A stretch of DNA of 64,000 nucleotides from Escherichia coli (lineage in GTDB: Bacteria > Pseudomonadota > Gammaproteobacteria > Enterobacterales > Enterobacteriaceae). The notes beneath the pieces are model-generated. The model was given only the letters and a program-made list of their open reading frames with translations. It made no database searches and had not been told where the DNA came from. The first letter of the stretch is position 1. Each line of letters opens with the position of its first letter. The position numbers and the translations under genes are program-made. Positions 6,471 through 7,046 of the stretch are shown one piece after another. The stretch lies in the NCBI RefSeq assembly GCF_044324785.1, contig NZ_CP172127.1; one strand, written 5' to 3'.

Positions 6471-7046
6471 ATGGAATACTTTGATATGCGTAAAATGTCG
6501 GTAAATCTGTGGCGAAACGCTGCCGGTGAAACGCGAGAAATTTGCACTTTCCCACCGGCAAAACGTGATTTTTACTGGCGTGCCAGCATTGCATCCATCG
6601 CGGCGAATGGGGAGTTTTCTTTGTTTCCCGGTATGGAAAGGATAGTGACGTTGCTGGAAGGCGGCGAGATGTTCCTTGAAAGCGCAGACCACTTTAACCA
6701 TACCTTAAAACCGTTACAGCCTTTTGCCTTTGCGGCGGACCAGGTGGTAAAAGCGAAACTGACGGCAGGGCAGATGTCGATGGATTTCAATATTATGACG
6801 CGCCTGGATGTCTGTAAGGCGAAAGTCAGAATTGCCGAACGTACGTTTACTACCTTTGGCTCACGCGGCGGGGTGGTGTTTGTAATAAACGGGGTGTGGC
6901 AATTGGGCGACAAACTGCTCACTACCGACCAGGGCGCGTGCTGGTTCGATGGCAGGCACACCCTGCGGCTTTTACAACCGCAGGGTAAACTGTTGTTCAG
7001 TGAAATCAACTGGCTCGCTGGTCATTCGCCGGATCAAGTTCAGTAA
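6471..7046 (+). CDS. ves: HutD-family protein Ves
   Basis: ORF 6408..7046; start set to ATG 6471 ([29 protein letters not shown]..., 191 aa). Confidence 0.9.

Follow-up and report, generated by a model that had tools for sequence, protein, structure and literature searches.

The 41-bp tail-to-tail overlap of ves and cho in Escherichia coli: geometry, conservation and probable origin

The ves/cho locus and its two proteins

[quoted passage not shown] The open reading frame listing, read together with the sequence, gives a common segment of 41 bp, and the RefSeq coordinates agree. The ves stop is a TAA at 7044-7046 on the plus strand and the cho stop a minus-strand TGA at 7006-7008, appearing as TCA on the plus strand, which bears out the convergent 41-bp overlap put forward in the original prediction. 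For each gene the segment consists of the stop codon, 12 sense codons and two nucleotides of a 13th, meaning that the “last 13 codons” named there are correct for both ves and cho provided that the stop is counted. The two frames are set such that first codon positions face each other, ves second positions face cho third positions, and ves third positions face cho second positions. The mechanical reading frame of ves begins at 6408, upstream of the annotated ATG.

Table 1. Coordinates of the genes and features at the ves/cho locus (positions of the window).
Feature	Position	Strand	Remarks
astE	4485-5453	+	gene order at the locus
spy	5783-6268	+	gene order at the locus
Terminator-like hairpin with T run	6288-6302	-	back-to-back with the spy terminator
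spy intrinsic terminator	6298-6358	+	strong Term-seq 3' end 123 nt upstream of ves
Sigma-28 (FliA) promoter motif	6391-6418	+	upstream of ves; 28-mer identical to a published FliA ChIP-seq site
ves CDS	6471-7046	+	191 aa, HutD family; annotated ATG start at 6471
p19-captured duplex, 22 bp	6596-6617	both	in ves, ~390-410 nt past the cho stop; exact match (PMC7373196)
Third p19 duplex	~6884-6904		inside ves; coordinate transferred from a K-12-like locus (PMC7373196)
Strong hairpin, 11-12 bp stem, 5-nt loop, no U tract	6959-6987	-	within ves codons 164-173
ves codons I179-N180 (ATC AAC)	7005-7010	+	TCA at 7006-7008 is the cho TGA in antisense
Shared 41-bp stretch	7006-7046	both	reading frame listing and sequence
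cho CDS	7006-7893	-	295 aa; GTG start at 7893
cho codons I283-T284 (ATT ACT)	7042-7047	-	complement contains the ves TAA (7044-7046)
RNase III-cut, p19-captured duplex, 21 bp	7213-7233	both	in cho, ~170-190 nt past the ves stop; one mismatch in this strain (PMC7373196)
LexA-box-like palindrome CTGGATAGATAACCAG (CTG-N10-CAG)	7909-7924	-	15 nt upstream of the cho GTG
nadE	8123-8950	-	gene order at the locus
osmE	9152-9490	+	gene order at the locus

The same coordinates for both genes are annotated by RefSeq/PGAP in strain N3, and the same 41-bp overlap stands in every E. coli RefSeq record examined (a K-12-like strain, O157:H7 and a poultry isolate). Of 5426 complete E. coli genomes, all but one (5425) carry the locus; bases 6300-8100 match N3 at 100% identity, and about 5400 other complete genomes share 95-99% identity with them. 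Because the C-termini are fixed by the stop codons, there is no shorter ves or cho C-terminus to annotate, and since the overlap is defined by these codons at the DNA level, a shorter C-terminus detected by proteomics could not abolish it. The overlap is thus real, ordinary and already known, having stood in E. coli annotation for decades.

Both ves and cho are genuine protein-coding genes, and outside the overlap both display the third-position variability typical of coding sequence in Escherichia and Citrobacter. Ves matches the Pfam HutD family over residues 8-175 (E = 1e-43) as well as solved HutD structures, and has hundreds of orthologues, the 191-aa database cluster holding 3318 members. 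A PDB search assigned to Cho an N-terminal UvrC-type GIY-YIG nuclease domain (residues 22-113). The Pfam library scan gave no match for Cho at E ≤ 0.01; the newer families UvrC_M (PF27096) and Cho_C (PF27115) do match, with 3994 homologues carrying them in precomputed Pfam data, and the 295-aa database cluster has 5277 members.

Protein alignments indicate that the shared DNA encodes mostly the ends of both proteins that lie past their conserved cores. The Ves core (...FSEIxW(L)) ends around W181-L182 (nt 7016) and is followed by the tail AGHSPDQVQ, while the Cho core (...YEIxEL) ends at L286 (nt 7036), beyond which lies the variable tail DPANDQRAS. Past the cores, both tails are short and variable in length and sequence. 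In E. coli the two cores do not overlap, being separated by 19 nt (7017-7035), and the 41 bp correspond to the two tails superposed plus three to four core codons on each side; in Atlantibacter the cores abut (...ITYL-stop and ...IIEL-stop). The AlphaFold models, built on shallow alignments, reach a mean pLDDT of only 54 (Ves) and 46 (Cho), a low level of confidence at which tail disorder is not readable.

Spacing of the two genes in related genera

A scan based on the Ves alignment, taking one genome per species, returned 80 loci, in each of which the stop-to-stop distance was measured; Salmonella was not among them and its locus was recovered by exact-protein look-up. Wherever both genes are present in the Escherichia and Citrobacter loci checked (16 of 16), the overlap is 41 bp long and neither stop shifts position. 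The overlap measures 32 bp in Leclercia, Silvania and one E. asburiae, 23 bp in most Enterobacter and in Lelliottia, Huaxiibacter and Pseudenterobacter, 15 bp in Superficieibacter and one Kosakonia, 7 bp in Phytobacter and others, and 4 bp in most Kosakonia. The stops are separated by a gap of 2-3 nt in Atlantibacter and Franconibacter, and of 28-48 nt in four loci. Tight convergent packing of ves and cho is therefore old, with the overlap length shifting by lineage.

A likely clue to the constancy of the 41-bp class comes from the codons that face the two stops, since each stop is spelled by the complement of a partner's isoleucine codon and the base that follows it (Table 1). I179 is invariant in the Ves alignment and I283 is invariant in the Cho alignment, and any ATY codon followed by A yields TAA or TGA in antisense. 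When the codon for Ves residue 180 opens with G or T (as in EIVW and EIFW), Cho extends by three codons to the next antisense stop, which accounts for the 32-bp class. These patterns suggest that purifying selection on the isoleucine codon of each partner holds the stop of the other gene, fixing the overlap at 41 bp. Such a constraint would produce exactly the same length across two genera with no selection acting on the overlap itself.

The two frames also appear to be unequally constrained within the shared stretch. Sorted by ves codon positions 1, 2 and 3, variable sites amount to 5/13, 4/14 and 8/14, and summed entropies to 4.2, 2.7 and 9.5, respectively, the most variable class thus being the ves third positions, which are the cho second positions. 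In addition, Escherichia and Citrobacter show hardly any change in the Ves tail GHSPDxVQ, and the Cho tail varies even within Escherichia. The direction of these differences is clear and points to the ves frame dominating selection in the overlap while the Cho tail evolves freely, the counts per site class being small and not statistically decisive.

As to the length itself, across 16 genes of the window the antisense frame at the ves/cho phase has a stop frequency of 3.0% per codon, giving a probability of about 0.69 that a reading frame entering its neighbour stays open for at least 12 codons. Once the spacer is gone, therefore, chance suffices to explain an overlap this long. The arrangement in which position 2 faces position 3 is the favoured phase in non-trivial convergent overlaps (bioRxiv 10.1101/2025.11.07.687268), and genuine long overlaps are a regular occurrence in the convergent orientation alone (PMC2478687). 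Among the seven convergent pairs in the first 50 kb of the window, ves/cho is the sole overlapping one. Two other convergent pairs, ydjO/tcyP (18864/18868) and selO/hemP (41366/41370), lie 3 nt apart, a distance that leaves no room for an intergenic terminator; ydiE(hemP)-selO is likewise in the published excludon list.

Each of the two genes also occurs alone at the spy-[ves]-[cho]-nadE locus of close relatives. Salmonella enterica (L084) has cho without ves; its Cho is 302 aa long, with a new 7-aa tail, and the cho stop abuts the spy terminator, at which that tail ends. Conversely, ves without cho is found in E. albertii, several Citrobacter, Trabulsiella and one Enterobacter (loci L008, L012, L015, L016, L019-L021, L042, L064 and L082), where the same 191-aa Ves is kept and ves is followed by a hairpin spacer of 45-80 nt and then by nadE. 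These natural “knock-outs”, exemplified by Salmonella without ves and E. albertii without cho, show that the ves/cho arrangement is not required.

Three further cases deserve mention. A ves-only locus labelled “Salmonella Saintpaul” (L083, GCA_016412205.1) was set aside as probably mislabelled, being only 76-83% identical to a true Salmonella locus. The Citrobacter metagenome-assembled genome HRGM_Genome_0066 carries two ves loci (L003 and L018), one 98% E. coli-like and the other Citrobacter-like, which suggests a mixed bin. In a pig isolate (L086, NZ_CM149872.1, 3207-4525), cho is reduced to its last 300 nt, with ves and the 41-bp overlap intact, and the genes annotated beside the truncated one belong to the Mom and Com families, a neighbourhood like that of a Mu-like prophage.

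Transcription across the junction

The two genes answer to different regulators. A published FliA ChIP-seq/RNA-seq study, whose ChIP-seq site is found upstream of ves, gave a ves RNA-seq value of 18 in the wild type and 0 in a fliA deletion, and ves is a member of the FliA (sigma-28) regulon. The gene cho (ydjQ) figures among LexA-regulated genes with a known SOS box (PMC6590174) and is a member of the LexA (SOS) regulon; a search with an idealised 20-mer LexA consensus found nothing within three mismatches, and the cho box was read from the sequence instead. The description of the pair as a stress gene and an SOS-inducible nuclease was thus broadly right, to which the fliA data add the membership of ves in the sigma-28 regulon.

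It had further been argued that a terminator of either gene must necessarily lie within the other, and the geometry leaves no alternative. Intrinsic terminator prediction found no terminator-like site in 7000-7100 on either strand, the RNA past the ves stop (fold of 6990-7140) was not more stable than its shuffles (z = -0.64), and a bidirectional intrinsic terminator, with a G+C-rich hairpin and A/U tracts, is absent from the junction. Likewise, the Term-seq tables of Adams et al. (PMC7815308) contain no 3' end near the junction, and Rfam matched nothing in or near the overlap. With no space left for a terminator between the genes, and none predicted, each transcript would be expected to read through into its partner. 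The read-through RNA beyond each stop is untranslated and contains more C than G.

On the far side of ves, the spy terminator insulates ves from spy. The terminator-like hairpin that lies back-to-back with it on the minus strand is the first such site met by cho-strand read-through after crossing ves, and its T run could end cho-strand transcripts that have traversed that gene. At the other end of the locus, between the cho promoter and the nadE stop, Rfam matches to the small RNA ES036 (CssrF; 42.9 bits, above the gathering threshold of 37.6) and a weak partial match to naRNA4 fall in REP-like palindromes (8001-8043 on the minus strand and 8047-8083 on the plus strand).

A strong hairpin lies on the cho strand, 19-47 nt downstream of the cho stop (Table 1). 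A 70-nt region around it folds at -27 kcal/mol, compared with -15.6 ± 2.9 for shuffles. It is found in all Escherichia loci checked and is absent in Citrobacter and Enterobacter, and the changes it has undergone keep pairing through wobble only. Speculatively, it could be a candidate 3'-end-protecting stem for a Rho-terminated cho mRNA.

Two published datasets already document overlapping transcription of cho and ves. In the 2025 “excludome”, cho-ves figures among the 165 convergent excludons of MG1655, the criterion being that transcripts overlap in 50% or more of the 58 RNA-seq sets (PMC12288877). The data of Huang et al. 2020 (PMC7373196) provide sense/antisense levels, in RPM, of 7.9/19.2 for cho in the wild type, 6.4/22.0 in rnc-14 and 5.7/34.6 in rnc-38, and of 156.7/4.7, 173.0/1.8 and 244.7/8.6, respectively, for ves, with about 2-3 RPM of antisense RNA over neighbouring genes. 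From these values, cho antisense exceeds cho sense 2.4- to 6-fold and, per kilobase, ves antisense is comparable in magnitude to cho sense RNA. The p19-captured duplexes of the same study fall within both genes. These antisense levels match what two-way read-through predicts.

Furthermore, uninduced cho transcripts are mostly cut short by Rho near the 5' end, with a Rho-dependent 3' end 24 nt into the cho reading frame (about 7870 on the minus strand of the window; MG1655 1,823,539 on the plus strand) and a further Rho-termination region deeper inside the gene (PMC7815308). Since Rho stops cho so early, few uninduced transcripts would reach ves. The 3' end close to the cho start suggests premature termination of this GTG-initiated, LexA-repressed gene.

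The geometry of the locus had been taken to imply mutual transcriptional interference or antisense effects. The overlapping transcription itself stands, being attested by the excludome listing, the antisense levels and the duplexes, but the implied regulatory consequence would be a further step. Between the wild type and the two rnc mutants, ves sense RNA differs by no more than 1.1-1.6-fold, and neither mutant shows a rise in cho sense RNA.

Origin and consequences of the overlap

The available data are best accommodated by a stable tail-to-tail overlap that arose from stop-codon drift between convergent genes left with no spacer, and whose transcriptional effects are real and probably small; a probability of roughly three in four is assigned to this reading. 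In the corresponding model, each frame would run on until the coding sequence of its partner happens to spell an antisense stop, and purifying selection on the isoleucine codons of the partner would lock the overlap at 41 bp. Past its stop codon each transcript would then carry on without translation, forming C-rich antisense RNA across the other gene and most likely being halted diffusely by Rho, as its composition suggests. This read-through would be the source of the antisense RNA over cho and of the RNase III-cut duplexes in both genes. Cross-regulation between sigma-28-driven ves and LexA-repressed cho is probably weak and incidental, and not a selected switch.

Stop-codon drift of this kind would place ves and cho in a known class, since convergent overlaps arise by 3' extension after loss of a stop codon (PMC2478687; Rogozin et al. 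2002 as cited there). As in the convergent overlapping pairs described by Pallejà et al. 2008 (PMC2478687), two genuine opposite-strand genes share their 3' ends, the arrangement is conserved in more than one species and the stops have moved. At 41 bp, ves/cho falls below the range of about 60 bp in which most convergent overlaps are misannotations. Nothing essential sets the pair apart from this class, the added detail being that both stops complement invariant isoleucine codons of the partner. The analysis therefore offers a worked example of how a convergent coding overlap could form by drift of stop codons into dispensable tails and then freeze as each stop comes to complement a conserved isoleucine codon. 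Overall, this is not surprising and matters little.

With regard to termination, the ves/cho junction occupies the same kind of position as bidirectional intrinsic terminators, and relatives devoid of cho actually carry such a hairpin spacer from ves to nadE. The junction itself differs in having no hairpin with a U tract, and the Escherichia hairpin downstream of the cho stop likewise has none. Rho-dependent termination acts on untranslated and antisense read-through transcripts in E. coli. The resemblance of the ves/cho transcripts to this group lies in their untranslated RNA past the stops, with C exceeding G, and in the Rho termination documented within cho, Rho-dependent 3' ends being described in E. 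coli (PMC7815308, PMC6061677).

Three observations weigh against mere drift. The exactness of the 41-bp length across two genera and the Escherichia-specific hairpin just past the cho stop could both mean that the arrangement is under selection, and the excess of cho antisense over sense RNA is in principle large enough to matter. They would fit a functional convergent excludon, that is, a selected switch making ves and cho antagonistic through RNA polymerase collision, RNase III cleavage of duplexes, or both. The pair shares with convergent excludons its place in the published list (ExcludonFinder, PMC12288877) together with the antisense RNA and RNase III-cut duplexes (PMC7373196), and the two promoters answer different signals. 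However, the class is defined by mutually exclusive expression, whereas ves/cho is known here from transcript overlap, and in ves/cho the coding sequences overlap and not just the 3' UTRs. The small changes of sense RNA in the rnc mutants, the early Rho termination of uninduced cho, the persistence of each gene alone in close relatives, and an overlap that ranges from 4 to 41 bp among genera and gives way to gaps in some all argue against such a switch, and the conservation of the stops is accounted for by the isoleucine codons. A selected switch is accordingly regarded as unlikely, while keeping more weight than any other alternative to drift.

A more specific proposal, somewhat less likely again, is that the excludon has been selected to couple motility to the SOS response: antisense RNA from FliA-driven ves would keep Cho low in undamaged motile cells, SOS-induced cho would silence ves, and the Escherichia-specific hairpin (6959-6987) would set the 3' end of cho or make it more stable. 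Should cross-regulation prove true, flagellar control by sigma-28 would be tied to SOS-inducible excision repair, a modest but new connection, and on the excludon reading Cho would be a back-up nuclease kept low by ves antisense RNA.

It might also be supposed that the overlap was selected for genome compaction, or as a mutual “insurance” by which deletion of one gene damages the other. Tight packing is indeed common in this region, as the ydjO/tcyP and selO/hemP gaps of 3 nt illustrate, but either gene has been lost cleanly on repeated occasions, leaving the other intact, the 191-aa Ves retaining its tail where cho is missing and Salmonella Cho having gained its new 7-aa tail, which makes this explanation very improbable. 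Finally, an annotation or sequence artefact, in which a frameshift or sequencing error has made one C-terminus wrong and no true overlap exists, can be virtually dismissed: long convergent overlaps are often 3'-extension misannotations (PMC2478687) and the near-identical N3 assembly differs from the window elsewhere by several 1-nt indels, yet 6300-8100 is unaffected by them and conserved in some 5400 genomes, the same stops recur in every Escherichia and Citrobacter locus examined, the database clusters agree on the lengths of both proteins, the substitution pattern of the Ves tail is of the coding type, and the stop codons leave no freedom to annotation. An origin in the N3 indels in particular was rejected on the identity of 6300-8100 and the universality of the arrangement in E. 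coli.

The single-base indels that distinguish the window from N3 (L085, NZ_CP031609.1) lie at about 4400-5000, at 9000-12000 and further along. In N3, astE, chbC, cedA, ydiY and espL1 are flagged as frameshifted, in what looks like assembly indel errors, and astE is intact in the window (322 aa).
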